From an uncultured Actinomycetes bacterium (lineage in GTDB: Bacteria; Actinomycetota; Thermoleophilia; UBA2241): 64,000 nucleotides of DNA. Where the stretch lies: positions 60,961-124,960 of the forward strand of contig CAVPVX010000003.1 in NCBI GenBank assembly GCA_963709345.1, read 5' to 3'. The translations under genes and the position numbers were made by a program. Each line of letters opens with the position of its first letter. Within the stretch, counting starts at the first letter, position 1. A model generated the notes under the pieces. That model saw only the letters and a program-made list of their open reading frames with translations. It was not told where the DNA came from and ran no database searches. Below are positions 687-50,719 of the stretch, in pieces.

Positions 687-1526
687 TCAGACCTCCAGAT
701 CCAGCGCCAGGTCGACCCAGACCGACCGCGTCGTGAGAGCGCCGGCCGAGATCACGTCAACCCCGGCCTCGGCGAGCTCCCGCACGCGCTCGAGCCGGAC
801 CCCGCCGGAGACCTCGACAAGCGCCCGGCCGGCGACACGGCGCACAGCCTCGCGCACGGACTCCGTGTCCATGTTGTCGAGCAGGACGATGGTGGCGCCG
901 CAGGCGAGCGCCTCATCCAACTGCTCGAGTGTGTCGACCTCGACCTCGAGCGCGTGCAGGTGCGCCGCTCCGGCGCGCACCAGCGAAACGGCGGCGGCGA
1001 CGCCGCCGGCCGCCGCCACGTGGTTGTCCTTGATCATCGCGCCGTCGAACAGGCCGAAGCGGTGCGGCGTGCCGCCGCCGTGCACGACGGCCTGCTTCTC
1101 GAGAGCGCGGAGCCCCGGCGTCGTCTTTCGCGTCGCGGCGATGCGGGCGCTCGTCCCCGCCGTCTCCGCGACGTACTGGGCGGTCAGCGTGGCCACACCG
1201 CTCAGCCGACAGAGGAAGTTGAGAGCCGTCCGCTCGGCGGCGAGGATGGCAGCCAAAGGGCCATCCAGCGCGGCGACGGCATCTCCCGCGGCGAAAGGTT
1301 CACCGTCGCGGACGAGCACGCCCACGGTGAGCCCCGGGTCGACGAGAGCTGCGGTCGCCTCGAGCGCGGCCACCCCGGAGAGCACGCCTTCCTCGCGCGC
1401 AACGACCTGTGCGGCGGCGCTGCCGGAGAAGACCGAGCCGGTGAGGTCGCCGTAGCCGGCAAGGTCTTCGGCCAGGGCTCGCCGCGCCGCCTCACGAGCC
1501 GCTTCACTGTAGCTGCGTTCGCTCAT
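687..1526 (-). CDS. nadC: Nicotinate-nucleotide diphosphorylase (carboxylating)
   Basis: ERTALNFL, TRKTTPGLR, HRFGL, IKDNH, EVEV, LLDNM motifs. Confidence 0.97.
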   Translation of the reverse strand: MSERSYSEAAREAARRALAEDLAGYGDLTGSVFSGSAAAQVVAREEGVLSGVAALEATAALVDPGLTVGVLVRDGEPFAAGDAVAALDGPLAAILAAERTALNFLCRLSGVATLTAQYVAETAGTSARIAATRKTTPGLRALEKQAVVHGGGTPHRFGLFDGAMIKDNHVAAAGGVAAAVSLVRAGAAHLHALEVEVDTLEQLDEALACGATIVLLDNMDTESVREAVRRVAGRALVEVSGGVRLERVRELAEAGVDVISAGALTTRSVWVDLALDLEV

Positions 1527-1544
1527 CGTCCGTCGCGGTGCGGC

Positions 1545-3167
1545 TCAGCCGGCCGCATCTCGCTCCGCCGGCGGGAGGCGAAGGGTGATGTGCCGGCGCC
1601 AGTGTTCGTCGTCCGCGTTCGGGTAGTCGTCGCGGAGTTGCACGCCGCGCGACTCCTCGCGCAGCAGAGCGCACTTGGCGATCTGCGTGCCCAGCGTGAG
1701 CATGTTGAGGACCTCGTACTCGGCCTCCCCCATCGGTCCGAACCGAAGCCCCGAGGTGAGGTCGTTCAGTTCGCCGAGCGCCGCGGTCAGGTCGTCGGCG
1801 CGGCGCAGCACGCCCACCTTGTGGCGCATGACGTCGGTCAGGCGGCGGCGCGCGGCCGCCGCGTCTCTGTCGTCACCTGCCGACGCCGCCTCCGGCAGGT
1901 CGAAGCGGAGGCGACGGACATCCTCGCCGAGCCTCCCGATGTAGCGGTCGAGATCGCGCACCACGCGGTCGGAGAAGACGAGCCCCTCGAGCAGTGAATT
2001 GCTGGCGAGCCGGTTGGCGCCGTGGACGCCGGTGCTCGCCACTTCACCGCTCGCGTAGAGGCCGGGGACCGTGGTGCGTCCCCACTGATCCGTGACGACA
2101 CCACCGATGAAGTAGTGGCAGACTGGAGCCACCGGCACGAGCTGCGTCGCGAGATCGAGGCCGTGATCGGCAAGACCGGCGCTCACGACGGGGAACCGCT
2201 CCCGCAGCCAGGCGGCATCGAGGTGCGTCGCGTCGAGGTAGACGTGCTCTGAACGCTCGACCCGCATCTCGGCGACCATGGCGCGGACGACGACGTCCCT
2301 CGACGCCAGCTCCGCGCGCGGGTCGTACGCAGCCATGAAGCGCTCGCCGGCGGCATTGCGCAGGTAGGCTCCTTCGCCGCGCAACGCCTCGGTGATGAGC
2401 TGCACGGTCTCCTGCCCGGGGATCGCAAGGCCGGTCGGATGGAACTGCACGAACTCGAGATCGCGGATGGCGGCGCCGGCGCGATACGCCATGGCGATGC
2501 CGTCGCCGGTCGCGACCCGGGGATTGGTGGTCCGCCCGTACACCTGCCCGGCGCCGCCGGTCGCGAGAATGGTGACCATGGCGACGTTGAGGGTGAGGCC
2601 GCCGTCCGCCAGATTGAGCGTGAGCGCACCCACGCAGCGGCCGCCGACGGTGAGCAGGTCGATGACGAACTCATCCTCGTAGAGCTGCACGCGGCTGCCG
2701 ACGCGGGCCGCTTCGGCCAGGGCGCTCGAGACTTCGCTGCCGGTCGCGTCGCCGCCGGCATGCACGACTCGCGGCACCGAGTGAGCTCCCTCACGGCCGA
2801 GGACGATCTGCCCGTCGACCTTGTCGAAGCGCGGGCAGATCTCCATGAGCTCCCGCACCCGGTCGGGTCCCTCGTTCACGAGTACGCGGACGGTCTCTTC
2901 GTCACACAGGCCGGCCCCGGCCTTGACGGTGTCCTCGAAGTGGAGCTCGGGAGAGTCGCTCGGCCCGAGGGCCGCGGCGATGCCTCCCTGCGCAAGGAAG
3001 GTGGTCGTGTCGTCGAACGTCGACTTGGTGAGCAGGCCGACCCGCCAGCGGCGCGCGGCGCCGATGGCGGCCGTGAGGCCGGCGATGCCACCACCCAGCA
3101 CGAGCACGTCGAACGTGCGCCGGTGCAGCGCCTCTTCGGAGCGTGAGGCGACGTACGGACGCGTCAT
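1545..3167 (-). CDS. nadB: L-aspartate oxidase
   Basis: GGGIAG FAD motif, AQGGIAA, EGAHS, EFVQFHPT, HGANRLASNSLLE; adjacent to nadC. Confidence 0.95.
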   Translation of the reverse strand: MTRPYVASRSEEALHRRTFDVLVLGGGIAGLTAAIGAARRWRVGLLTKSTFDDTTTFLAQGGIAAALGPSDSPELHFEDTVKAGAGLCDEETVRVLVNEGPDRVRELMEICPRFDKVDGQIVLGREGAHSVPRVVHAGGDATGSEVSSALAEAARVGSRVQLYEDEFVIDLLTVGGRCVGALTLNLADGGLTLNVAMVTILATGGAGQVYGRTTNPRVATGDGIAMAYRAGAAIRDLEFVQFHPTGLAIPGQETVQLITEALRGEGAYLRNAAGERFMAAYDPRAELASRDVVVRAMVAEMRVERSEHVYLDATHLDAAWLRERFPVVSAGLADHGLDLATQLVPVAPVCHYFIGGVVTDQWGRTTVPGLYASGEVASTGVHGANRLASNSLLEGLVFSDRVVRDLDRYIGRLGEDVRRLRFDLPEAASAGDDRDAAAARRRLTDVMRHKVGVLRRADDLTAALGELNDLTSGLRFGPMGEAEYEVLNMLTLGTQIAKCALLREESRGVQLRDDYPNADDEHWRRHITLRLPPAERDAAG

Positions 3168-3207
3168 GAGGCTCCCGTCGGCGCGAGTTCGTCGCTGGTC
3201 AACCGGC

Positions 3208-3717
3208 TCACCCTTCCATGACGTCGAAAAGCATCACCTGCTGGCTGCGAGTGGTGGTTCGGGCCAGCCCCGCCACGTCGAGCTCGGGCATGCCCTTCGC
3301 GTGTCCCCACACCTCGAGCAACGGCACAAGCACGAATGCGCGCTTGACCATGCGCGGGTGCGGGAGCGTGAGCTCAGGATCCTCGGACTCGACGTCCTGG
3401 AAGAGCAGTATATCGATATCGAGCGTGCGCGGCCCAAAGCGGATCTCGTGCGTCCTGCCGTGTTCGTGCTCTATGCGCTGGCACTCGACGAGAAGGTCGT
3501 GCGGCTCGAGGCCGGTGTCAAGGCACACCACCTGGTTGAGGAAGGCGTCCTGATCGAGGTGCCCTTGCGGCGCCGTCTTGTAGACCCGGGACACGGCGAC
3601 GATCCGGGTCGCGGGGAGCGCCGCAAGCGCTTCGCCGGCGGCGGCCAGGTACGCGCTGCAGTCGCCGACGTTCGAGCCGAGCGAGAGGAACACGCGTCTT
3701 CCGCTCGCTCCGCTCAC
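3208..3717 (-). CDS. folK: 2-amino-4-hydroxy-6-hydroxymethyldihydropteridine diphosphokinase
   Basis: LSLGSNVG, FLNQV, GPRTLDIDILL, LPHPR. Confidence 0.96.
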   Translation of the reverse strand: MSGASGRRVFLSLGSNVGDCSAYLAAAGEALAALPATRIVAVSRVYKTAPQGHLDQDAFLNQVVCLDTGLEPHDLLVECQRIEHEHGRTHEIRFGPRTLDIDILLFQDVESEDPELTLPHPRMVKRAFVLVPLLEVWGHAKGMPELDVAGLARTTTRSQQVMLFDVMEG

Positions 3718-39830: not shown

Positions 39831-40919
39831 CTACACAGAGCGGGCGGTCCGCCCGCGGCCTTTGCGCGGCCGCGCCGCCTTGGCCTCGGCGTCGCTCGCG
39901 AAGGCGTCGAGGCCGAGGTAGTCCGGGCACGCAAGCGCCGGCAGGAAGCCGGCCGCCAGGCCGATCATGCCGGCGTTGTCGGTGCAGAGACCGAGCGGAG
40001 GCAGCGAGAGCTGCAGCCCCTCCTCCTCGCAAGCGTCGGTCAGCGCCCGGCGCAGCCCCGAGTTGGCGGCCACACCGCCGGCGACGGCCACACGCCTCAA
40101 GCCTTCGGCCCTTGCGCCGGCGATCGTCTTGTCGACCAGCTGGTTCACGATCGCCGCCTGGTAAGCCGCCGCGATGTCGGCGCGATGCGCCTCGACCTCG
40201 GCTACCCCACGGTCGCGGAGGTCGTAGAGCAGGGCGGTCTTCAGGCCGCTGAAGCTGAAGCCGCGACCGCGAGGCACGGCGCGCGGAAAGCGGGCGAAGC
40301 CCGGGTCGCCGCGCGCCGCCAGCGCGTCGAGCTCCCTGCCGCCCGGGTACCCGAGACCGAGCAGCCGGGCGCCCTTGTCGAACGCCTCGCCGGCCGCGTC
40401 GTCCATCGTCTTGGCCGCGACGCGGTACCGGACGCCCTCTTCCACGACGGCCAGCAGTGTGTGTCCACCGCTGGCGACCAGGCACACGAACGGCGCCTCG
40501 ATCCCGAGGGCGTAGTTGGCGGCGATGTGGCCCTGCAGGTGATTGACCGGGACCAGCGGCAGTCGAAGACGGTAGGCGATCGCCTTCGCCGCCGCCAACC
40601 CGACGAGCAGCGCGCCGATCAGACCCGGGCCCTGCGTGACCGCGACCGCGCCGAGCTCGTCCCAGCCGACACCCGCGTCGGCCAGCGCCTCCGCGACGAC
40701 GTCACCCACGAGCTCGGTGTGGCGGCGCGACGCGACTTCGGGCACCACCCCGCCGAACCGGGCGTGGAGCTCGTTCTGCGACGACACGATCGACGACACC
40801 ACCTCGCGGCCGTGCACGACCGCCGCACTCGTGTCGTCGCACGAGGTCTCGACGGCGAGGATGGGGCCGGCGGCCGCAGCCTGCCCGGCCGCAGCGACCG
40901 CCCGGGGGCCGGCGGTCAC
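39831..40919 (-). CDS. tsaD: t6A37 threonylcarbamoyltransferase TsaD
   Basis: ETSCDDT, GGVVPEVASRRH, GPGL, HLQGH, SGGHT, DDAAGEAFDK, CTDNA. Confidence 0.96.
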   Translation of the reverse strand: MTAGPRAVAAAGQAAAAGPILAVETSCDDTSAAVVHGREVVSSIVSSQNELHARFGGVVPEVASRRHTELVGDVVAEALADAGVGWDELGAVAVTQGPGLIGALLVGLAAAKAIAYRLRLPLVPVNHLQGHIAANYALGIEAPFVCLVASGGHTLLAVVEEGVRYRVAAKTMDDAAGEAFDKGARLLGLGYPGGRELDALAARGDPGFARFPRAVPRGRGFSFSGLKTALLYDLRDRGVAEVEAHRADIAAAYQAAIVNQLVDKTIAGARAEGLRRVAVAGGVAANSGLRRALTDACEEEGLQLSLPPLGLCTDNAGMIGLAAGFLPALACPDYLGLDAFASDAEAKAARPRKGRGRTARSV

Positions 40920-41404
40920 GCGCTGTCCCCTTCCCAGTCCTTCCACATGATGACGGCGTCCTCGCGGTCGTCGCTGTAGTAGCCGGGGCGGACGCCCGTG
41001 GCGACGAAGCCGAAGCTGCGGTACAGCTCGACGGCCGACGCGTTCGAGACGCGGACCTCGAGCGTGTGACCGCGATGCCCGCGGCGCTCGGTGATCGCGA
41101 AGTACGCCTCGAGGAGCCGTGACGCCAGGTGCTGGCGGCGGAGCGACTCCTCGACGCAGAGGTTCATGAGGTGCCAGACGTCGACGAACATGTCGGCGAT
41201 GAGGTACGCGACGAGGCGGCCGTCGTCCTCACACACCAGGCAGATTCCGCTCTCGCGCGCGAGCTGCCCGCTGAAGACGGCGAGCGACCACGGCAGGGTG
41301 AAGCAGCGAGCCTCGAGTGCGGCGACGGACTGGAGGTCGGTGAACTGCATCGGCCGCACGACGCGCTCGTGCCGCTGGGGGTCCGGAACGACCTGGAGGC
41401 TCAC
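40916..41404 (-). CDS. rimI: Ribosomal protein S18 alanine N-acetyltransferase
   Basis: PWS, LEVRVSN, LYRSFGF, RPGYY..EDA; between tsaB and tsaD. Confidence 0.9.
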   Translation of the reverse strand: MSLQVVPDPQRHERVVRPMQFTDLQSVAALEARCFTLPWSLAVFSGQLARESGICLVCEDDGRLVAYLIADMFVDVWHLMNLCVEESLRRQHLASRLLEAYFAITERRGHRGHTLEVRVSNASAVELYRSFGFVATGVRPGYYSDDREDAVIMWKDWEGDSA

Positions 41405-42156
41405 GACGGATCCCTTACGGACGATGCCGGGGCCGGCGTACCGCCGGCCGGCGGCGTGCCGGCCGGCCGCGGCACGGCGTCCGGCGAGCGGCCGTAGATG
41501 GGGAGCACCGCTTGGGGGCCCCAGACGACGCCGGGCGCACCGCAGGCGACCGCCCGCCCGACCATGGCGGCAGTCGGAGCATCGCTGCCGGGGGCCCTCC
41601 GCGCCGTCTCCGGCAGAAGCTCAGCGTAGAGCGCGGCGCCGTCGCCCCCCACGACGACGTCGCCGTGCGCGCCGAGCCAGGCGGTCAGCTCGCCGGCGGC
41701 GACCACCTCGAGTCCGTCCACCAGCCGCACGACACCGGTCGCGGCGCGCTCGTACACGGCGGCGAACACCTCGCGGCGGCGGCCGTCGATGAGCGGCACC
41801 AGCTGCGCCGCGGGCGCCTGCGGGGACGGCGGCGACGCTCCCGCCAAGGCGACGGCCAGCGCGGCGAGCGTGGGTGCTCCGGCCAGACGCACGCCGGCGC
41901 CGGCCTGCGCCAGCGCCCGGGCGGTGGCCACGCCGATGCGCAGGCCGGTGAAGGCGCCGGGGCCGAGGCCGACGGCGATCGTGTCGACGTCGGCCCACGC
42001 CGCCCCGGACTCCGTGAGGATCTCGTCCACGTACGGCAGCAGACGCCGCGAGTGCGCCGGACCGTCCAGCGACAGACGCTCGGCGACGACAGAGCCGTCT
42101 GCGGCGCACAGCGCCGCGGAGCAGGCCGCCGTCGCGGTCTCAAGCGCGAGGATCAC
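41401..42156 (-). CDS. tsaB: t6A biosynthesis protein TsaB
   Basis: ILALETAT, GPGAFTGLRIG, DGRRREVF. Confidence 0.93.
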   Translation of the reverse strand: MILALETATAACSAALCAADGSVVAERLSLDGPAHSRRLLPYVDEILTESGAAWADVDTIAVGLGPGAFTGLRIGVATARALAQAGAGVRLAGAPTLAALAVALAGASPPSPQAPAAQLVPLIDGRRREVFAAVYERAATGVVRLVDGLEVVAAGELTAWLGAHGDVVVGGDGAALYAELLPETARRAPGSDAPTAAMVGRAVACGAPGVVWGPQAVLPIYGRSPDAVPRPAGTPPAGGTPAPASSVRDPS

Positions 42157-42647
42157 CGGCGATCCCCGCGGCTTTCGGCGATCGCCTCCGCGGACATCGC
42201 GGCTTCGATTGCCGCCTCGAGGCTCGCGGGTCCACCGACACTCACGACGCGGCTGCGCGGCGTGCGGTGCTCGAGCTCAACGCGGACGTCGGCCGGCGGC
42301 AGAGCGTTGCCGCCGACGGCGGGCCACTCCACGAAGGTGAGCGCCGAAGGGCCCAGGTAGTCGTCCCACGCGAACAGCTCGGCGTCGGCGCCGCGGCTCA
42401 ACCGGTAGAGATCCAGGTGATGCAACTCCTCCCCGCCACGCCCGCGGTAGCTCTGGGCCAGCGTGAACGACGGGCTGGTGACGGTCCCACGAACACCGCG
42501 GGCGCGCAGTATCGCGCGAATGAGGGTCGTCTTGCCTGTTCCCAGCTCGCCCTCGACGGTCACGAGCGCCGGCGGTCGCAGCAGACTCGCCAGCTCACGG
42601 CCGAGCTTCCTGGTCTGCGCCGGCGCCGCGAGGGTGAGCGTCACCAT
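42153..42647 (-). CDS. tsaE: t6A biosynthesis ATPase TsaE
   Basis: GELGTGKTT, VTSPSFTL, HLDLYRL, VEW. Confidence 0.94.
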   Translation of the reverse strand: MVTLTLAAPAQTRKLGRELASLLRPPALVTVEGELGTGKTTLIRAILRARGVRGTVTSPSFTLAQSYRGRGGEELHHLDLYRLSRGADAELFAWDDYLGPSALTFVEWPAVGGNALPPADVRVELEHRTPRSRVVSVGGPASLEAAIEAAMSAEAIAESRGDRR

Positions 42648-43448
42648 CTAGAAGAGGCCGAGCTGCTCCGGTCCGGCCGGCGCGACGTGCCCATCCGGCT
42701 CGGGTCCGGCAGGGGGCGTATCGGCGTCAGCGGAGCCGGAGGAGGAACCCTCCTGCTGCCGCGTGGCCGGCGGCGCGACAGAAGACCTGAGGCGTTCGGG
42801 CGGCTGCCACGCCGGCCGCTCCACGGCCGGCGGCGCGGCTGCCTCCGCGCACTCCGCAGGAGCCGCCTGAGCCAGCAGGTCGGGGAGCCGCCGGAAGTCC
42901 TCTTCCAGCGTCGTGAGCGTCGCCGATGTGTACAGCGCCGCGGCGGGGTGGAAGATCGGGTACAGATACACGCGGTGCCCCCCGATCTCGACGACCCGGG
43001 GCTGCCCGTGGACGCGCGTGATGCCGGTGGGGTCGCCGCTCAGGAGCTTCGTGGCGAAGTTGCCCAGCGTGCACACCACCCTCGGCTCTATGAGCGCGAT
43101 CTGCCGCAAGAGATGCGGGCGGCAGGCGGCGATCTCCTCCGGCCGCGGGTCGCGGTTGTTCGGCGGGCGGCATTTCAGGACGTTGGCGATGAACACATCG
43201 TCCCGCGACAACCGTATGCCACCGAGCAGCTTGTCGAGGAGCTTGCCGGCCTGGCCGACGAACGGCCGGCCCTGCTGGTCCTCGTGATAGCCGGGCGCCT
43301 CGCCGACGAACAGGAGCCCGGCGCCAGGGTCGCCGTCGCCGGCAACGCTGCGTGTGCGCGTCGCGTGAAGGTCGCACAGCGTGCAGGCCTCGACCTCGGC
43401 GCGAAGGGAGTCCAGCTCCGCTACGACGTCGTCAGTGGCAGGTGTCAC
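42648..43448 (-). CDS. Uracil-DNA glycosylase family 4 (4Fe-4S)
   Basis: CTLC, GEAPG..ED.QG.PFVG, NVLKCRPP.NR, HPAA. Confidence 0.93.
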   Translation of the reverse strand: MTPATDDVVAELDSLRAEVEACTLCDLHATRTRSVAGDGDPGAGLLFVGEAPGYHEDQQGRPFVGQAGKLLDKLLGGIRLSRDDVFIANVLKCRPPNNRDPRPEEIAACRPHLLRQIALIEPRVVCTLGNFATKLLSGDPTGITRVHGQPRVVEIGGHRVYLYPIFHPAAALYTSATLTTLEEDFRRLPDLLAQAAPAECAEAAAPPAVERPAWQPPERLRSSVAPPATRQQEGSSSGSADADTPPAGPEPDGHVAPAGPEQLGLF

Positions 43449-43650
43449 AGGAGGAAGCGGCGCAACTGGAGCAGCTCTTGGTCGCTCCCTTGCCGCCGAG
43501 GTTCGCGGACGACGAGTGCACGGCGAACGCCGACAGCAGTCGGCAGACGTCGCCGGAGTGACACGCGGGACACTCGGGCTTGACCCCGTTGCGGACCAGC
43601 TCCTCGAACGCGGTTCCGCAATGGTTGCAGCAGAATTCATAGATCGGCAT
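43432..43650 (-). CDS. FmdB family zinc-ribbon protein
   Basis: MPIYEFCC..CG..FE, CPAC, C-terminal CxxCxxxxCxxC. Confidence 0.88.
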   Translation of the reverse strand: MPIYEFCCNHCGTAFEELVRNGVKPECPACHSGDVCRLLSAFAVHSSSANLGGKGATKSCSSCAASSCDTCH

Positions 43651-43819
43651 GGCGCCAGTGTACCATCCGTCAATTGACGTCGCGCGCGCGAGGCACTACG
43701 CTCACCAAGGCCCGGAGCCGAGCCTCGGCAGGCGACCGGGACACCGCCTGTACTGCACAGGCCGCGGCAGGCGCGGTACCTCCCCGAGCGGGCGGACCGC
43801 AGCCGGAGAGGTCGTGGGC

Positions 43820-44704
43820 TTGACCGTCGATGCGTACCGCTTCTGCGTGATCGGCCCCGGACGGCTGGGGTCGACGCTGCTCGCCGGCCTTCTGGAGGCC
43901 GAGCTCACCGTGAGCGCCGTCGGCGTCCACGCCGACGACGCCACCTCGCTCTTCGACTCGATTCCTCACGTACGCGTGCGCGACGCCGCACTCGAGGCCG
44001 ACGCCTGGTGGCTGGCGGTCCCGGACGACGAGATCCATGGCGTGGCCGGGCGGCTGGCTGAGGCTCTGCCCGGGGCCCGCCTCCCTGGAGCGCCGCAGCC
44101 GCTCGCCGTCCACTCGAGCGGCCTGGGCTCGATCCATCTGCTGAAGCCGCTCGTCGACCAGGGCGTGCGCGTGCTCTGCCTCCACCCCCTGCAGACGTTC
44201 GCCGGCGAGCCGAGCGCCGAGCTGCTGCGGGGCGTGCCGTGCGCCGTCACGGCGCACGAGGAGCGCGACCTGCTGCTCGGCGAGGAGCTCGCCGGCCGGC
44301 TCGGCATGCGTCCCTTCCGGCTCGCCGACGGGCAGAAGACCTTGTATCACCTGGCCGCGGTCGTCGGCTGCAACCTGCTCGTCGCTCTCGAAAGCGAGGC
44401 CAAGCGCCTCATGGACGAAGCCACCGGCGAGAGCCGGGGGCTCGACCACCTGAGCGTGCTCGTGCAGACGACGGTTCGGAACCTCGTCGCCGCGGACGAC
44501 CCGGCGCACGCGCTCACCGGGCCGGTGGCGCGCGGCGACGCAGGCACCGTACGCGCCCACCTGCGCCTCCTCGACCGCGAGAGCCCGCGCCTCGCGCGCA
44601 CTTACCGGGCGCTCTCGCTCGAGGCGCTGGCGCTCGCCGCGCCGCGCCTCGTCGACGAGCAGGTCCGGTCTCTCAGAGATCTGCTGGAAGGCGGCGCGGC
44701 GTGA
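43820..44704 (+). CDS. Rossmann-like + DUF2520 oxidoreductase (PanG-like ketopantoate reductase)
   Basis: IGPGRLG, AVPDD, HSSG, HPLQTF, YHLAA, LTGPVARGD.GTV..H; upstream of panC. Confidence 0.85.
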   Translation: MTVDAYRFCVIGPGRLGSTLLAGLLEAELTVSAVGVHADDATSLFDSIPHVRVRDAALEADAWWLAVPDDEIHGVAGRLAEALPGARLPGAPQPLAVHSSGLGSIHLLKPLVDQGVRVLCLHPLQTFAGEPSAELLRGVPCAVTAHEERDLLLGEELAGRLGMRPFRLADGQKTLYHLAAVVGCNLLVALESEAKRLMDEATGESRGLDHLSVLVQTTVRNLVAADDPAHALTGPVARGDAGTVRAHLRLLDRESPRLARTYRALSLEALALAAPRLVDEQVRSLRDLLEGGAA

Positions 44705-45672
44705 TCGTCGCGCGCACCATCGCCGAGGCGCGGGCCTCGCTGCGCAGGCTGCCGCGGCCCCTCGGCTTCACGCCGACGATGGGTGCGCTGCACGCCGGCC
44801 ACCTCAGCCTCGTCGAGGCGGCGAAGGACCGCTGCGCGAGCGTCGCCGCCTCCCTCTTCGTCAACCCGACGCAGTTCGGGCGCGGTGAGGACCTCGCCGC
44901 CTACCCGCGCAACGAGGCCCGCGACCTCGCGCTGTTCGAGCAGGCGGGCGTCGAGGTCGTGTTCGTGCCGCCCGCAGACGAGATGTACCCCGGCGGCTTC
45001 GCGACGTCGATCCACCTCGGGGGACCGCTCACGGCGTCCTACGAAGGCCGGGAGCGGCCCGGCCACTTCGACGGGGTCTGCACAGTGGTGGCGAAGCTGC
45101 TCGCGATCGTGACTCCCGACATCCTCTTTCTCGGCGAGAAGGACGCTCAGCAGTTGGCCGTGCTCCGGCGCATGGTGCGCGACCTCGACCTGCCGGTCGA
45201 AGTCGCCGGCGCGCCGACCGTGCGCGAGCCGGACGGCCTGGCCATGAGCTCGCGCAACGTCTACCTCACACCGGCGCAGCGCGCCGTCGCGCCCGACCTC
45301 TACCGAGCGCTGCTCGCAGGTGCGACGGCGGCCCGCAGGCCGGGCAGCGGGCCCAAGGATGCGGTCGTCGCCGCCGCGATGCTGTTGGCGGCGCCCGATG
45401 CGGGACTCAGGAACGAGGACGACCGCCTGCGTGAGCTGAAGGGCCGGGCGCCGGCAGGCCTGCCGCACTTCGACATCGACTACATCGCCGTCGTCGACGC
45501 CGAGACGTTCGCCCAGGAGTCGGTCGTCGGGCCGCGCTCACTCTTCATCGGCGCGGCCCGACTCGGCCCCACCCGCCTCATCGACAACGTCTCGGTCGCC
45601 GTGCGTTCGGCGGACGAGCGGGCCACGACGACACCAGCCGGCGCGTACCCCGACCAGGACGCGACCGCATGA
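44701..45672 (+). CDS. panC: Pantoate-beta-alanine ligase
   Basis: PTMGALHAGH, FVNPTQF, RPGHFDGV, GEKDAQQ, AMSSRN, RLIDN. Confidence 0.96.
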   Translation: MIVARTIAEARASLRRLPRPLGFTPTMGALHAGHLSLVEAAKDRCASVAASLFVNPTQFGRGEDLAAYPRNEARDLALFEQAGVEVVFVPPADEMYPGGFATSIHLGGPLTASYEGRERPGHFDGVCTVVAKLLAIVTPDILFLGEKDAQQLAVLRRMVRDLDLPVEVAGAPTVREPDGLAMSSRNVYLTPAQRAVAPDLYRALLAGATAARRPGSGPKDAVVAAAMLLAAPDAGLRNEDDRLRELKGRAPAGLPHFDIDYIAVVDAETFAQESVVGPRSLFIGAARLGPTRLIDNVSVAVRSADERATTTPAGAYPDQDATA

Positions 45673-46160
45673 GAGGAAGGACCATCGTGAGCAGTGTCAT
45701 CAACACCGATCAGAAGGAGCATCAGGTGCGCGAAGGCCTCGCCCGCGTCGTCACCGGCGCCATCGAGTTCTCCAGCCGCGGCGACTCCGACATCAAACGC
45801 ATCACCGACGAGGTGCGCGACGCGGTGCGCCGCAGCGAGCTCCACGACGGCACGGTCACCGTGTTCGCGCCGGGAGCGACCGGCGCGATCACGACCATCG
45901 AGTACGAACCCGGCGTGGTCCAGGACCTGCAGTCCGTTCTCGACGCCATCGTCCCGAGCGACCGCGCCTGGCAGCACAACATCAACAACGGCGACGGCAA
46001 CGGTCACTCGCACGTGCGCGCCGGCCTGCTGGGACCGTCGCTCGTGATCCCCTTCGTGGACGGTGCCCTCACCCTGGGCCGCTGGCAGGAGATCGTCTTC
46101 TGCGACTTCGACGCGCGCCCGCGCGAACGCAGCCTCGTGGTGCAGGTGATGGGAGTATGA
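45669..46160 (+). CDS. YjbQ/UPF0047 family protein
   Basis: GATGAITTIEYEPG, NGHSH, LGRWQEI, DFD.RPR. Confidence 0.9.
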   Translation: MRGRTIVSSVINTDQKEHQVREGLARVVTGAIEFSSRGDSDIKRITDEVRDAVRRSELHDGTVTVFAPGATGAITTIEYEPGVVQDLQSVLDAIVPSDRAWQHNINNGDGNGHSHVRAGLLGPSLVIPFVDGALTLGRWQEIVFCDFDARPRERSLVVQVMGV

Positions 46161-47524
46161 GCGCCGCCGATGCCACCCGCCCCGCGCCAGAGAGGGGCAC
46201 GCCCGCGTCCGGCGCGGACTGCGACCCCTCCCGGCCGCGCCCGATCGTCCAGGTCGCGCTTGACTTCGTCGACCTGCCGCGCGCGCTCGAGGTCGCGCAC
46301 GAGGCCGTCGCCGGCGGCGCCGACTGGGTCGAGGCCGGCACACCGCTGATCAAGGCCGAGGGCCTGGCCGCCGTGCGCGCCCTGAAGGCAGAGTTCCCCG
46401 ACAGGACGATCGTCGCCGACATGAAGACGATGGACGCCGGCCGCACCGAGGTGGAGTACGCGGCCAAGGCCGGCGCCGGCGTCGTCGGCGTGCTCGGCGC
46501 CGCGTCCGACAGCACCATCAAGGAGTGCGCCGAGGCGGCGCGCAACTACGGCTGCAAGCTCATCGTCGACATGATCGAAGTCACCGACCCGGTCGCGCGG
46601 GCCAAGCGTGCCCAGGAGCTCGGCGCCGACTACATCGGCATCCACACGGCGATCGACCAGCAGATGCGCGGCGAAGCGCCGTTCGAGACGCTGCGCGCCG
46701 TGGCCCAGGCGGTCGTCATCCCCGTCTCCGTCGCCGGCGGCATCAACAGCGAGACGGCCGCCGCCGCCGCCGACGCCGGCGCGGCGATCATCGTGGTCGG
46801 CGGAGCCATCATCAAATCGGCCGACGCGGCGGCGGCCACCGCCGAGATCCGCCGCGCCGTGGACGAGCGCGTCTGCATCGAGACGACGCTCTACAAGCGC
46901 GCCGGCGCGGCCGACATCCGCACCGTACTCGAGCAGGTCTCGACCGCGAACGTGAGCGACGCCTGGCACCGGCAGCCGAGCCTGCCGGGCATCCGGCCGC
47001 TGCTGCCGGGCGCCCACCTGTGCGGCCCGGCGGTCACGGTGCGCACCTACGCCGGCGACTGGGCCAAGCCCGTCGAGGCGATCGACGTGTGCAAGCCGGG
47101 CGACGTGCTCGTCGTCGACGCCTGCGACGCGACGCCCGCGATGTGGGGCGAGTTGGCCACCCACAGCGCCATGGTCAAGGGCATCGCCGGCCTTGTGGTG
47201 TGGGGCGCGATCCGCGACACACCGGAGATCGCGCGCCTCGGCTTCCCCGCCTTCAGCAGCAAAGTCTGCGCCAACGCCGGCGAGCCCAAGGGCTTCGGCG
47301 AGATCAACGTGCCGATCACGATCGCCGGGCAGACGGTGCGCCCCGGCGACTGGATCGTCGGCGACGACGACGGCGTGATGGTCCTGTCCCGGGAGCAAGC
47401 CGTGGAGCTCGCCAACCGCGCCATGGACGTGCTCGAGAAGGAGAACCGCCTGCGCGGCGAGATCGACGCCGGCAAGACGCTCGCCGAGGTCGCCTACCTT
47501 CGGAAGTGGGAGAAGGCGCGCTAG
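46157..47524 (+). CDS. 3-hexulose-6-phosphate synthase fused to an RraA/HMG-aldolase-like domain
   Basis: N-domain VQVALD, EAGTPLIK.EG, ADMKTMDAG, VAGGI, VGGAI; C-domain STANVSDA, GPAVTV, WGEL, GAIRD, PGD.IVGDDDGV. Confidence 0.88.
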   Translation: MSAADATRPAPERGTPASGADCDPSRPRPIVQVALDFVDLPRALEVAHEAVAGGADWVEAGTPLIKAEGLAAVRALKAEFPDRTIVADMKTMDAGRTEVEYAAKAGAGVVGVLGAASDSTIKECAEAARNYGCKLIVDMIEVTDPVARAKRAQELGADYIGIHTAIDQQMRGEAPFETLRAVAQAVVIPVSVAGGINSETAAAAADAGAAIIVVGGAIIKSADAAAATAEIRRAVDERVCIETTLYKRAGAADIRTVLEQVSTANVSDAWHRQPSLPGIRPLLPGAHLCGPAVTVRTYAGDWAKPVEAIDVCKPGDVLVVDACDATPAMWGELATHSAMVKGIAGLVVWGAIRDTPEIARLGFPAFSSKVCANAGEPKGFGEINVPITIAGQTVRPGDWIVGDDDGVMVLSREQAVELANRAMDVLEKENRLRGEIDAGKTLAEVAYLRKWEKAR

Positions 47525-47534
47525 ACGAAGCCGC

Positions 47535-47645
47535 TCAGCGCGCGCGGCGGGCGTACCAGGTGAACTGCAGGCTCGCGCCCGCCGCCTGGAAGCGGTCGTC
47601 CACCGCCGGCCCACCCTCGGGGAAGAGGGCGGTGAACGGGTACAT
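47535..47645 (-). pseudogene. Possible C-terminal remnant of a CalY/TasA-like secreted protein
   Basis: YPFTALFPEGGPAVDDRFQAAGASLQFTWYA resembles, from memory, the C-terminal pattern of such proteins; no upstream part. Confidence 0.3.
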
Positions 47646-47703
47646 GCACTTCTCTCTAGCTAGGTATCGGCCGGGAACGGCGCGGGTTTGGTAGGACGGA
47701 GGA

Positions 47704-48204
47704 TCAGGAGGAGGCGAGGCGGGGGGCGAAGCCCCGTACCGCCCCGCGCGCTGGGGCGCCGGCGGCGTGCGCCGCGACAGCAAGGTCGCGACGCAACGGC
47801 CGGCGCCCGAACCGCACCAGGTGGCCGACGCAGCGGCAGTCGCCGGCGCCGAAGCGGGGCGGGCGGCGCTCCGCGCCGGGCAGCCCCGCCAAAGCGCCGG
47901 CGAGCGCACATTCGCCGGTCGCGCCGTCCACGAGCCAGGCCCGCCGCGCCGGGAAGACCGCGAAGAGGTAGTCGGCGTGCCAGCGCAGCGGTTTCTCGAG
48001 CGCGAGATGGCGCGCAACGCGCGCCCTGCGCCCCCGCGCGGCGCTACCCACGTAGGCGTACCAGCCGCGCTCCAGCGTCACGGCTCCGAGCGACCCGATG
48101 CGCACCGAAGACCGGCGCGGCACGTACGTGAGAGAGATGTACAGCCGGGCGGCGGCGGTCGGTGGGCTCGTCCCGCCCGCCCGGCCGATCCCCGCGGCGG
48201 GCAC
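47704..48204 (-). CDS. DUF123 / GIY-YIG-like nuclease (start uncertain)
   Basis: IGSLG, GWYAYVGSA, RVARH, RWHADYL, EC, FGAGDC.C.GHL. Confidence 0.8.
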   Translation of the reverse strand: MPAAGIGRAGGTSPPTAAARLYISLTYVPRRSSVRIGSLGAVTLERGWYAYVGSAARGRRARVARHLALEKPLRWHADYLFAVFPARRAWLVDGATGECALAGALAGLPGAERRPPRFGAGDCRCVGHLVRFGRRPLRRDLAVAAHAAGAPARGAVRGFAPRLASS

Positions 48205-48242
48205 GCCGCTCTCCCCGTCCCCTCGGCCCACCAATGAACCGC

Positions 48243-49223
48243 TCACCTGCCGGGAGGCTCCCAGTCGGCCGCCTTGGCGCTTCGTGGAGGGTCGGCGGTG
48301 CCGCGACGCCGGCGCGAGCCCGGCGCCATACCCCCGCGGCGCGGCTGGCAGCGCGGACAGTAGTGCGTACCGCGGCCGCCGACCACGACGCGTTCGATGG
48401 AGACTCCGCAGACCCGGCACTCCTCGCCGGTACGCTGGTACACGCTCAGGATCTCCTGAAAGCTGCCGCGCTCCCCGGCCGGGTCGATGAAACTCTCGAT
48501 GCTGGAGCCCTCGTGATCGATACCGGCCTGGAGCGTCTCGAGAAGGGCCGCGTGCAGGCGCCGCGCTTCACGCGGCCCAACGCTCCCGGCCGCTCGCAGC
48601 GGGTGAAGACGCGCCCGGAAGAGTGCCTCGTCAGCGTAGATGTTCCCGACCCCGGCCAAGCGGCGCTGGTCGAGCAGGAACGCCTTCAGCGGCGCCTGCC
48701 TGTCCTTCAGCGCGCCGCGCAGATACTCCAGGGTGAACTCCGGGCCGAAGGGCTCCGGCCCCATGCCCCGCGAGGCGAAGAACGCATCCTCGTTCGCCGC
48801 ATCGAGGACCCACAAGCGGCCGAACCGGCGCACGTCCTGGAAGTGGAGCTCCGTGTCCGGATCGAGATGCCAGATGAACCGGGCCGGACGCTCGCCGGAC
48901 TCGGGCCTGAATACGAGCTGCCCGGTCATCCGCAGGTGGATCACAGCGACACTCGCGCCGGCGCCCGCAGGTGGTCCGGCATCGGAGCGACCCGTCACGG
49001 ACGCCGGCCGGCCGGAGGACCCAGGCCACTCGAGGTCGACGAGCAGGTACTTGCCGCGCCGGCGCAGACCGGCCACGCGGCGCCCGGCGAGCAGCCGCCT
49101 CAATTGCGCCTCATCCTGCTCGCTCACAGATGCGTCGTTCACCGTAAGGCCGCTCACCACGAGACCGGGGAGACACGTGAGCAGCCGGCGACGGATCGTC
49201 TCGACCTCGGGGAGCTCGGGCAT
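48243..49223 (-). CDS. mutM: Formamidopyrimidine-DNA glycosylase
   Basis: MPELPEVE, RRGKYL, HLRMTG, D.RRFG, GVGNIYADE, C-terminal zinc finger. Confidence 0.96.
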   Translation of the reverse strand: MPELPEVETIRRRLLTCLPGLVVSGLTVNDASVSEQDEAQLRRLLAGRRVAGLRRRGKYLLVDLEWPGSSGRPASVTGRSDAGPPAGAGASVAVIHLRMTGQLVFRPESGERPARFIWHLDPDTELHFQDVRRFGRLWVLDAANEDAFFASRGMGPEPFGPEFTLEYLRGALKDRQAPLKAFLLDQRRLAGVGNIYADEALFRARLHPLRAAGSVGPREARRLHAALLETLQAGIDHEGSSIESFIDPAGERGSFQEILSVYQRTGEECRVCGVSIERVVVGGRGTHYCPRCQPRRGGMAPGSRRRRGTADPPRSAKAADWEPPGR

Positions 49224-50719
49224 CAGCCGTGCTCGGGCTCGGACGAGGGGTCGGCCCCTGCCTGTGCTCCTGCGTCGCGGTCCCACCAGCGGGCCAGGAA
49301 CCCCCGCGCCTCCCGGGCGTCCGTCACCAGGCCCGCCTCGACCTCTTCCTCCAGGGCGTCCAGCGCCTGACCGACGGCGGGTCCCGGCTCGAGACCGAGC
49401 AATTCCATGACGTCTTCGCCGCTGAGCAGCCGTGGGACCGGCGCCTTACTCACCGACGACCATACGGAGCGCGCCAGCCGGTAGTGGCGGGCGACCGAGG
49501 TGAGTGAGGTCTTCTCGCCGCGCGTCGCCAGCCGGTCGCAGAGCGAGACGACCACGGACTCGAACACCCAAGGGCTCACGTCGCGGCGGTAGCGGGCCAG
49601 GGCGCGACGCGTGAGGGGCTGCTCGCGCACGAGAAAGCCGAGCCGCAGATGCTGTCTGACCAGCGTGCCGAGATACTCGATGAAGCGCCGGCTGAGGTTC
49701 AGGCGCTCGCCGATGCCGGACACCATCCGTCGACCCACCTCGTCGTGGCGCCAGAAGATGATGCGGCCCCGGTCGTCCACGGTGCGCACGACGGGCTTGC
49801 CGATGTCGTGCAGCAGCACCGCCCACGACACCGGCACCTGAGGGTCGACGCCGGGGAGCCCGGCTTCGTCGGGCGGCGTGAGGTGGCTGCGGCCGCCGAG
49901 CTGGACGATCACCCCGCACACGTAGGTCAGCGCCTCGAGTGTGTGCTCGAACACGTCGAGATGATGGTACGGATTCTGCTCGACGCCGCGCAGACGGTCC
50001 AGCTCGGGCAGCACCTCCGCCAGTGCCCCCCAGACGGCCAAGTCGCGCAGAGCGAGGGAGGCGCCGCGCGTCGCGAGCAGCGCCGACAGCTCGTCACGCA
50101 CCCGCTCGCCGCTGGCGCCGGAGAGCCCGGGAGCGGCGCGGAACGCCGCTTCCGTCGCCGCGGCGTCGGGCACGAGCTCGAACGTGCGTGCCAGCCGAGC
50201 GAGCCGCATCACGCGCAACGGGTCGTCGGCGAGAGCAGTGGGCGAGCACAGCCGCAGGCGTCCGGCGGCGAGGTCGTCGATGCCCCTGAGCGGATCGACG
50301 AGTGCTTCTCCGTCGAGAGGCCGGGCCAGCGCGTCGACGGTCACGTCGCGGGCGCGCAGGTCGGCCTCGAGCCGCACGGCGCGCGTGGCGGCGTCGGGCG
50401 GCGCGCCGGGAGGTCCGGCGCGCAACGGCGTGACGTCGACGTGCAGGTCGCCGACGATGACACGCCAGTGCCCGAAGACCTCGGAGGTGGCGAACACGGC
50501 GCCGCCGAAGCGGTCGGCCAGCGCACGCGCCAGCGGCTCGGCGGACCCGTCGAGGGCGATGTCGATGTCGCGTACCCGCCGCCCCAGCAACTCGTCGCGC
50601 AAGCAGCCGCCGACCAGCCACCCGGCCTCGCCCGGACGGAGAGCGGCGTGCGCCGCGCGGGTCACCTCGTCCGAGGACGGCGGCGCGGTGGAGTAGCGGG
50701 AGGCGGGCACGGCCGTCAC
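49223..50719 (-). CDS. tRNA nucleotidyltransferase/poly(A) polymerase family with HD domain
   Basis: VGGCLRD..LG...DID, RDVTVDA, DDPLR, HHLDVFEHT, LLHDIGKP. Confidence 0.85.
   Translation of the reverse strand: MTAVPASRYSTAPPSSDEVTRAAHAALRPGEAGWLVGGCLRDELLGRRVRDIDIALDGSAEPLARALADRFGGAVFATSEVFGHWRVIVGDLHVDVTPLRAGPPGAPPDAATRAVRLEADLRARDVTVDALARPLDGEALVDPLRGIDDLAAGRLRLCSPTALADDPLRVMRLARLARTFELVPDAAATEAAFRAAPGLSGASGERVRDELSALLATRGASLALRDLAVWGALAEVLPELDRLRGVEQNPYHHLDVFEHTLEALTYVCGVIVQLGGRSHLTPPDEAGLPGVDPQVPVSWAVLLHDIGKPVVRTVDDRGRIIFWRHDEVGRRMVSGIGERLNLSRRFIEYLGTLVRQHLRLGFLVREQPLTRRALARYRRDVSPWVFESVVVSLCDRLATRGEKTSLTSVARHYRLARSVWSSVSKAPVPRLLSGEDVMELLGLEPGPAVGQALDALEEEVEAGLVTDAREARGFLARWWDRDAGAQAGADPSSEPEHG

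Follow-up and report, generated by a model that had tools for sequence, protein, structure and literature searches.

A fusion of hexulose-6-phosphate synthase with an RraA-like aldolase domain as a candidate substitute for PanB in pantothenate synthesis

A 64,000-nucleotide stretch of DNA from an uncultured bacterium of the class Thermoleophilia (contig CAVPVX010000003.1; the whole stretch is called the window here) contains an operon of four genes at positions 43820–47524. These encode a DUF2520 protein resembling the reductase PanG, the pantoate–beta-alanine ligase PanC, a YjbQ/UPF0047 protein, and a protein in which 3-hexulose-6-phosphate synthase (HPS) is fused to an RraA-like domain. The operon probably represents a branch of pantothenate synthesis which is independent of PanB and of folate, and this is the best explanation that we can offer for the fusion family. 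Gene order, domain content, conserved catalytic residues and phyletic patterns are observed here; which substrates are used, in which direction HPS runs, any channelling from one domain to the other and what YjbQ does are inferred.

Synthesis of pantothenate and coenzyme A is essential, and to our knowledge PanB has been treated as the universal first committed enzyme of bacterial pantothenate synthesis. A search of the literature, which did not extend to most subscription journals, revealed no published link between HPS–RraA fusions and PanB or pantoate. In the route proposed here, the HPS domain would split D-arabino-3-hexulose-6-phosphate into ribulose-5-phosphate and formaldehyde, and the fused RraA-like, metal-dependent aldolase domain would add the formaldehyde to the enolate of 2-ketoisovalerate, forming ketopantoate. 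The net reaction would convert hexulose-6-phosphate and 2-ketoisovalerate to ribulose-5-phosphate and ketopantoate. The PanG-like reductase would then reduce ketopantoate to pantoate, to which PanC would ligate beta-alanine. HPS is reversible, and the formaldehyde-releasing direction is used by archaea lacking the pentose phosphate pathway. In most carriers of the fusion, 6-phospho-3-hexuloisomerase (Phi) would make hexulose-6-phosphate from fructose-6-phosphate; in the window's clade, from which Phi is missing, the co-transcribed YjbQ subtype is a candidate supplier of hexulose-6-phosphate or formaldehyde.

Phyletic distribution of the fusion and of PanB

An anticorrelation between the fusion and panB had been suggested as a check in the original prediction for this operon, and it emerged strongly in three separate lineages, which keep PanC (Table 1). 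The Thermoleophilia sample consisted of 24 genomes outside the window's genus, all at least 96% complete, fusion-positive being defined as E <1e-170. The second sample was the Desulfobacterota order around G066, a carrier labelled Desulfobacteraceae. Two weak PanB matches in Thermoleophilia fusion carriers (20–21 bits) stayed below the cut-off of 28.7. A switch is seen within one Thermoleophilia family (f4), where genome G054 has PanB without the fusion and four relatives have the fusion without PanB. Among 50 fusion carriers of other lineages, PanC was found in 42 and PanB in two; 40 of them combine the fusion with pantoate ligase and have no PanB.

Table 1. Genomes with the fusion, with PanB, with both or with neither
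Sample	Genomes	Fusion only	PanB only	Both	Neither
Thermoleophilia	24	8	16	0	0
Desulfobacterota order around G066	101	5	92	1 (G180)	3
Planctomycetota (tally script-checked)	151	59	90	2	0

Because the exclusion recurs in three unrelated lineages, with a switch inside one family and no Planctomycetota genome lacking both genes, the pattern looks like the non-orthologous replacement of an essential step. Fisher values for the exclusion (3.7e-40, 4e-6 and 1.4e-6) are descriptive only, as they ignore kinship among the genomes.

The fusion family is large. A word-seeded search gave at least 7998 proteins at E ≤1e-20 among 8000 candidates, and a scan of species genomes gave at least 598 confirmed stretches with the fusion. 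Record labels include Thermoleophilia, Geothermincolia, several Desulfobacterota groups, Omnitrophota and Planctomycetota with anammox genera, as well as Elusimicrobia, Poribacteria, Altiarchaeales and Nitrososphaerota; the close homologues come from sources labelled ‘Thermoleophilia bacterium’ or ‘Actinobacteria/Actinomycetota bacterium’. Of 14 control genomes, only Methanosarcina acetivorans has the fusion (over the cut-off), and no PanB match was found in it. Many family members are named ‘HPS/PHI’ by JGI despite lacking a SIS domain. In a comparison with L023–L030 and L058–L077, the window fusion is as similar to Desulfobacterota-labelled versions (61–67%) as to those of other Thermoleophilia families (64–69%), a hint that the gene has moved laterally from one phylum to another.

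Inside the window's genus, the fusion is present near full length or in pieces in all congeners except G003 and G023. Three genomes (G006, G009 and G031, 95–100% complete) have the fusion only, and G003 has PanB only. In seven genomes of this genus, g1 (G010, G012, G014, G015, G017, G019 and G021), the fusion gene is split into two or three adjacent pieces. Assembly indels are likelier than decay as the cause, because PanB is fragmented too in G012, G013 and G019.

Domains and active sites of the fusion protein

The HPS half belongs to the HPS equivalog domain family, with 217 bits against TIGR03128 (HxlA, cut-off 200) for residues 31–234, and residues 263–409 match the RraA-like family PF03737 with 162.5 bits. 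The earlier description of the last gene as HPS joined to an RraA/HMG-aldolase-like domain is therefore correct. Against NF005442 (‘bifunctional hexulose-6-phosphate synthase/ribonuclease regulator’, PRK07028) the protein scored 592.1 bits over positions 3–429 of 430, and 592.0 bits in the genome search; it has the same architecture and falls 0.9 bit short of the cut-off of 593. Of 61 relatives, 16 pass this cut-off, many others lying at 579–593 bits.

Among solved structures, the HPS half is matched by PDB 9lj9 (211.7 bits) and 3ajx (142.4 bits), both deposited as HPS. The former, its best solved match, is the HPS–PHI fusion of Thermococcales (NF041755). The window fusion differs from it in having no SIS/Phi domain, and reaches 225.3 bits against the NF041755 cut-off of 500 through the HPS half only.

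The aldolase half matches the HMG/CHA aldolase LigK/GalC (PDB 3noj) with 97.7 bits. In the alignment R353 corresponds to Arg-123, D354 to Asp-124, G331 to Gly-101 and a Glu to Glu-199, while the position of Asp-102 is occupied by Glu. According to passages of PMC5065237, Arg-123 is essential to enolate stabilisation, Asp-124 and Glu-199 are acidic metal-binding residues and Gly-101 lines the pyruvate pocket. The fusion thus has the Arg, the acidic metal ligands and the pocket Gly of the RraA-fold class II pyruvate aldolases. R353, D354 and G331 are invariant in an alignment of nine family members (A2), as are D36, E59, D88, K90, D93 and H163 in the HPS half. The equivalogs for CHA aldolase/oxaloacetate decarboxylase are missed (NF006731, 134.6 against 179 bits; TIGR02798, 105.9 against 304.5 bits), as are those for the RraA regulator (NF006875, 59.8 against 136 bits; TIGR02998, 28.5 against 241.25 bits). 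Since the catalytic residues are kept while the RraA and CHA-aldolase equivalogs fail, the RraA-like half appears to be a catalytically active class II aldolase that forms a separate subtype. Its context is vitamin synthesis, that of LigK/GalC aromatic catabolism, and the substrate is presumably different.

The public name of NF005442 would make the second half an RraA-type regulator of RNase E without aldolase activity. We regard this as highly improbable, given the failure of the RraA equivalogs, the conservation throughout the family of the aldolase catalytic Arg and metal ligands, and the presence of the family in archaea.

The fusion did not match the PanB fold (PF02548) at E ≤0.01, and is proposed to work like PanB (EC 2.1.2.11) without being a PanB homologue. 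Both would form ketopantoate from 2-ketoisovalerate and a one-carbon unit by metal-dependent chemistry on a 2-oxo-acid enolate, and they hold complementary genome sets. PanB is called a class II, metal-requiring aldolase acting on ketoisovalerate in a passage of PMC4814558. The two have no sequence relationship, and the one-carbon donor of the fusion would be a sugar phosphate, via formaldehyde, whereas that of PanB is 5,10-methylene-tetrahydrofolate. The second half-reaction proposed for the fusion equals that of ketopantoaldolase (EC 4.1.2.12), an old activity without an assigned gene, which came from crude E. coli preparations and forms ketopantoate from ketoisovalerate and free formaldehyde. 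A literature search on this activity gave nothing usable, and we know of no link between it and the fusion family.

The closest analogue in design is the Fae–Hps fusion of methanogens (NF009833; 127.8 bits for the window fusion, cut-off 274), in which HPS is likewise fused to a domain consuming the released formaldehyde. The acceptor is Fae there and an RraA-fold aldolase here; the flux serves pentose supply there, and would be small and biosynthetic here.

An AlphaFold2 monomer model of the fusion has a mean pLDDT of 86.3, with residues 1–24 below 50, and bears no information on channelling. A complex prediction for the fusion with YjbQ gave a score of 0.00, which has no bearing either way. 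The first 24–27 residues (residues 1–27, positions 46157–46237) are rich in Ala, Pro and Arg, have a pLDDT below 50 and are without counterpart in most homologues. The true start of the fusion may lie downstream of the ATGA overlap with yjbQ. A distant branch (P0197, P0206, P0229, P0238 and P0248 in alignment A1) has the same two-domain architecture at 25–28% identity. Here the aldolase catalytic Arg is replaced by Thr or Ser and the equivalent of D36 is Asn in two of the five sequences; this branch probably has a different function or none.

Neighbouring genes, Phi and YjbQ

Gene order was compared at 12 Thermoleophilia loci from three families, and yjbQ lies directly upstream of the fusion in all 12. 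The four loci of the window's own genus have all four genes. The four of family f6 are arranged panC–yjbQ–fusion, without a DUF2520 gene; the four of family f4 are arranged DUF2520–yjbQ–fusion, with panC on the other strand about 1.5–2 kb downstream in two and not within 12 kb in the other two. As the pair is kept while the placement of panC and DUF2520 varies among families, yjbQ and the fusion are the constant core, around which the pantothenate genes are shuffled. The linkage to panC is therefore conserved in part: it holds, on the same strand and upstream, in eight of the 12 loci, while in the remaining four panC is displaced to the other strand or not within 12 kb.

We further examined 80 loci from species genomes by local tblastn with the window proteins (E ≤1e-6). 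At 28 of them yjbQ is directly upstream of the fusion; 24 of these records are labelled Actinomycetota, Actinomycetes or Thermoleophilia, three Omnitrophota (L080, L083 and L099) and one Planctomycetia (L081). panC was found at 22 loci and DUF2520 at 20. It is in records with the three labels just named that panC and/or DUF2520 flank the yjbQ–fusion pair; the twentieth DUF2520 locus (L077) is a 26% match in a Desulfobacterales record. At L080, L081, L083 and L099, the yjbQ–fusion pair follows Wood–Ljungdahl genes, for RACo, a CooC-like protein, CdhD and methyl-tetrahydrofolate:corrinoid methyltransferase, and a gene resembling the N-terminal part of Pta (AAA_26/DRTGG) comes after the fusion.

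The recurrent pairing of yjbQ with the fusion, at 12 of 12 Thermoleophilia and 28 of 80 species-genome loci, means that the gene arrangement is more than chance. It also makes it very unlikely that the four genes lack a shared function and form an operon of convenience, as might arise where a genome is compact and high in GC. Overlapping stop and start codons are indeed common in such genomes, and the block lies between unrelated housekeeping genes: rimI-like GNAT, tsaB, tsaE and UDG genes on the minus strand upstream, and fpg with a CCA/poly(A) polymerase-type gene (cca) downstream. The pair persists, however, as the flanks change, and is seen again in Omnitrophota and Planctomycetota records and in genome G222.

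For neighbours outside Actinomycetota, the open reading frames (ORFs) of the 80 loci were clustered and the cluster representatives searched with profiles. The phi gene adjoins the fusion at 13 loci, directly upstream at 11 and directly downstream at two (TIGR03127, 171 bits, cut-off 160). PanE/ApbA is encoded directly downstream of the fusion at four loci (TIGR00745, 248 bits, cut-off 141), labelled Deltaproteobacteria, Ca. Zipacnadia, ‘bacterium’ and Nitrososphaerota archaeon. With DUF2520 and PanE both adjoining the fusion, two reductase families tied to ketopantoate recur beside it in different phyla. At five loci without phi and yjbQ (L070, L071, L088, L112 and L117), the immediate neighbours were unrelated or without assignment. 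Eight anammox-type loci (L086, L091, L096, L102, L105, L110, L114 and L116) have a gene for a QueD-type 6-carboxytetrahydropterin synthase directly upstream of the fusion, and at most of them mcsA, mcsB and clpC follow it.

Phi accompanies the fusion in genomes as well as at loci. In Planctomycetota it was found (E ≤1e-25) in 55 of 61 fusion-positive and five of 90 fusion-negative genomes; at E ≤1e-15 it was found in 34 of the 50 mixed carriers, and over the cut-off in 28. Phi and the fusion therefore belong together as a module, in keeping with an HPS domain that uses hexulose-6-phosphate made from fructose-6-phosphate. No Phi was found in the seven mixed carriers with yjbQ at or near the fusion (in G063, locus L054, yjbQ is 2.2 kb away on the other strand), nor over the cut-off in the 11 Thermoleophilia genomes with the yjbQ–fusion pair, namely the window's genome and 10 others.

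A YjbQ profile (A3) was built from 14 sequences linked to the fusion, and copies scoring 150 bits or more against it were counted as the fusion-linked type. The window YjbQ scores 252.9 bits, the two paralogues of its genome 84.9 and 41.7. These paralogues (G000:C7:371843-372172 and G000:C4:267316-267702) match PF01894 with 142.8 and 121.3 bits and are 42% and 29% identical to the operon copy over locally aligned stretches of 100 and 135 residues. Where the fusion is present and Phi absent, the fusion-linked type was found in five of six Planctomycetota and in seven of nine further genomes; it also occurs in 12 of 55 Planctomycetota with both fusion and Phi, in nine of 90 without the fusion, and in three of five tested Phi-positive carriers. 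In G222 a yjbQ of this type lies on the strand of the fusion, about 175 bases upstream of it. The subtype is thus enriched where Phi is missing, yet not confined there. Strict mutual exclusion of YjbQ and Phi was rejected, as the fusion-linked type also occurs in Phi-positive carriers.

That fusion-linked YjbQ replaces Phi is a tentative suggestion from this distribution. Passages of PMC3010111 report for the YjbQ family no more than a weak thiamine phosphate synthase activity and the rescue of a pdxB mutant in multicopy, and the family is not known to have a physiological function.

The operon and the pantothenate genes of its genome

The window belongs to a genome (G000) of 3.11 Mb in 11 contigs, 98% complete. 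The four-gene observation is confirmed: the plus-strand ORFs (Table 2) are joined by overlaps of each start codon with the preceding stop, with the letters GTGA at 44701, ATGA at 45669 and ATGA at 46157, all as originally described. The first gene starts with TTG, and a longer, ATG-started frame opens at 43649. Its product had no match among NCBIfam models; by domain profiles it has the Rossmann-like and DUF2520 domains of a PanG-type reductase, which is its predicted activity.

Table 2. Features of the operon in window coordinates
Feature	Position	Strand	Evidence or remark
ORF1, DUF2520/Rossmann-like (PanG-like) candidate ketopantoate reductase	43820–44704	+	PF10728 104.8 bits; PF10727 34.8 bits
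ORF2, panC, pantoate–beta-alanine ligase	44701–45672	+	GTG start; TIGR00018 264.6 bits (cut-off 212.75); PF02569 302.8 bits
ORF3, YjbQ/UPF0047, fusion-linked subtype	45669–46160	+	TIGR00149 96.2 bits (cut-off 67.75)
ORF4, HPS::RraA-like fusion, 455 residues, proposed bifunctional ketopantoate-forming enzyme	46157–47524	+	end-to-end NF005442 match
HPS domain of ORF4, residues ~28–235	46238–46861	+	TIGR03128
RraA-like class II aldolase domain of ORF4, residues ~249–442	46901–47482	+	PF03737

An Rfam scan of positions 40000–50000 gave nothing but one sub-threshold snoRNA match, and a promoter and terminator scan gave no signal above shuffled sequences. Matches in sequencing runs were small shares only (at most 0.19 of words). 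The reads of three RNA-labelled runs and one DNA run yielded short contigs of relatives, and no gene junction was bridged by 31 letters.

The window has neither panB nor panD, as had been stated. The absence of panB is true of the window and false of the genome: the sole PanB match lies on another contig (G000:C10:54798-55562; PF02548, 343.8 bits, profile positions 5–259 of 259), as a canonical gene between those for an Lrp/AsnC regulator and a class I/II aminotransferase. ‘Without panB’ is therefore not a trait of this organism, in which the fusion route would be redundant with PanB or condition-specific; a canonical panB elsewhere in the genome is what the original prediction had listed first among findings that would count against it. 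In the stretch around this panB (L001, G000:C10:53298-57062, locus positions 1480–3367), no stop codon interrupts the PanB frame for about 200 codons beyond the end of the PanB profile, and the aminotransferase gene begins in frame only at its profile position 58, which points to a frameshift or assembly indel between panB and this neighbour.

No match to PanD (PF02261), the pyruvoyl aspartate decarboxylase, was found in this 98%-complete genome, which has PanC. PanE/ApbA (TIGR00745) has no match anywhere in it either, so the DUF2520 gene of the operon is the only dedicated candidate for a ketopantoate reductase. DUF2520 proteins are described as homologues of the Francisella reductase PanG in a passage of PMC4572677. 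The best match to Phi (TIGR03127) reaches 24.3 bits against a cut-off of 160, so that the genome lacks the isomerase which defines the ribulose monophosphate (RuMP) pathway, and Fae was not found. The genome does have a full transketolase, so that the fusion would have to carry no more flux than the vitamin demand requires. A reverse RuMP pathway for pentose supply was rejected for this genome, with transketolase present and Phi missing.

Several observations weigh against a replacement of PanB by the fusion. The intact-looking PanB makes the fusion dispensable in this genome on present evidence, and 27 of 36 congeners likewise have PanB, in most cases alongside the fusion. Without Phi, the only known source of hexulose-6-phosphate here would be formaldehyde and ribulose-5-phosphate. 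Three of the 101 genomes of the G066 order have neither fusion nor PanB. PanC is missing from eight of the 50 mixed carriers (two archaea, three genomes of 0.9–1.3 Mb and three others); archaea without PanC may use the archaeal pantothenate route. In the 80-locus sample, panC was found at none of the loci outside records labelled Actinomycetota, Actinomycetes or Thermoleophilia, and a pantothenate gene is nearby at about 25 loci, the others having unrelated neighbours such as queD, mcsAB–clpC, tRNA synthetase or Wood–Ljungdahl genes. Characterised RraA-fold aldolases act on pyruvate or oxaloacetate. Finally, related genomes are not independent, so the Fisher P values overstate the case.

Some of these points could fit a RuMP-type formaldehyde handler. 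Its HPS domain would capture or liberate formaldehyde, which the aldolase would condense with pyruvate (to 4-hydroxy-2-oxobutanoate, for example), either to detoxify it or to make another product, and the pantothenate genes would be mere syntenic neighbours. In favour of this are an HPS domain that passes the HxlA cut-off, the joint occurrence of Phi and the fusion, the pyruvate specificity of the nearest solved aldolase, and the absence of an adjacent pantothenate gene from about 55 of the 80 loci. We nevertheless consider this unlikely. It leaves unexplained the near-perfect exclusion of PanB with PanC kept, the 0 of 151 Planctomycetota lacking both genes, and the recurrent neighbours of two ketopantoate reductase-type families; with transketolase in the genome, reverse RuMP is not needed for pentoses.

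The fusion might also make another 2-oxo acid product while a different, co-varying gene replaces PanB. All evidence for the ketopantoate route is correlative, and this alternative would accommodate the eight of 50 carriers without PanC and the two of 151 and one of 101 genomes with both genes. It is quite improbable, since it is the fusion itself that adjoins panC, DUF2520 or PanE, and since its two predicted activities match what the PanB reaction needs, a one-carbon aldehyde and a 2-oxo-acid enolate.

The ketopantoate route thus stays the favoured reading, and the proposal that the fusion could substitute for PanB without folate fares unevenly. It is supported by the anticorrelation, the PanE and phi neighbours, the co-occurrence with Phi and the aldolase residues; the window's own genome, which keeps PanB, does not bear it out. 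If the proposal is true, it would close a hole in the metabolic reconstruction of sizeable, mostly uncultured groups, that is, of anammox and other Planctomycetota, Omnitrophota and parts of Desulfobacterota and Thermoleophilia, and probably the same gap in Methanosarcina. It would give a correct function to a family now named ‘HPS/ribonuclease regulator’ or ‘HPS/PHI’, and would reveal a biosynthetic, folate-free use of formaldehyde derived from a sugar phosphate.

A wider, and doubtful, possibility is that the fusion and either Phi or YjbQ make up a self-contained and widespread system which draws one-carbon units for pantoate from a sugar phosphate rather than from folate. Fusion-linked YjbQ would then act as a 6-phospho-3-hexuloisomerase not homologous to Phi, or would provide hexulose-6-phosphate or formaldehyde in some other way. 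Such a system would make good the lack of PanB in Methanosarcina, in many candidate phyla and in about 40% of the Planctomycetota sampled. The fusion-linked subtype offers a testable lead for YjbQ function, and this system would give UPF0047 its first physiological role.

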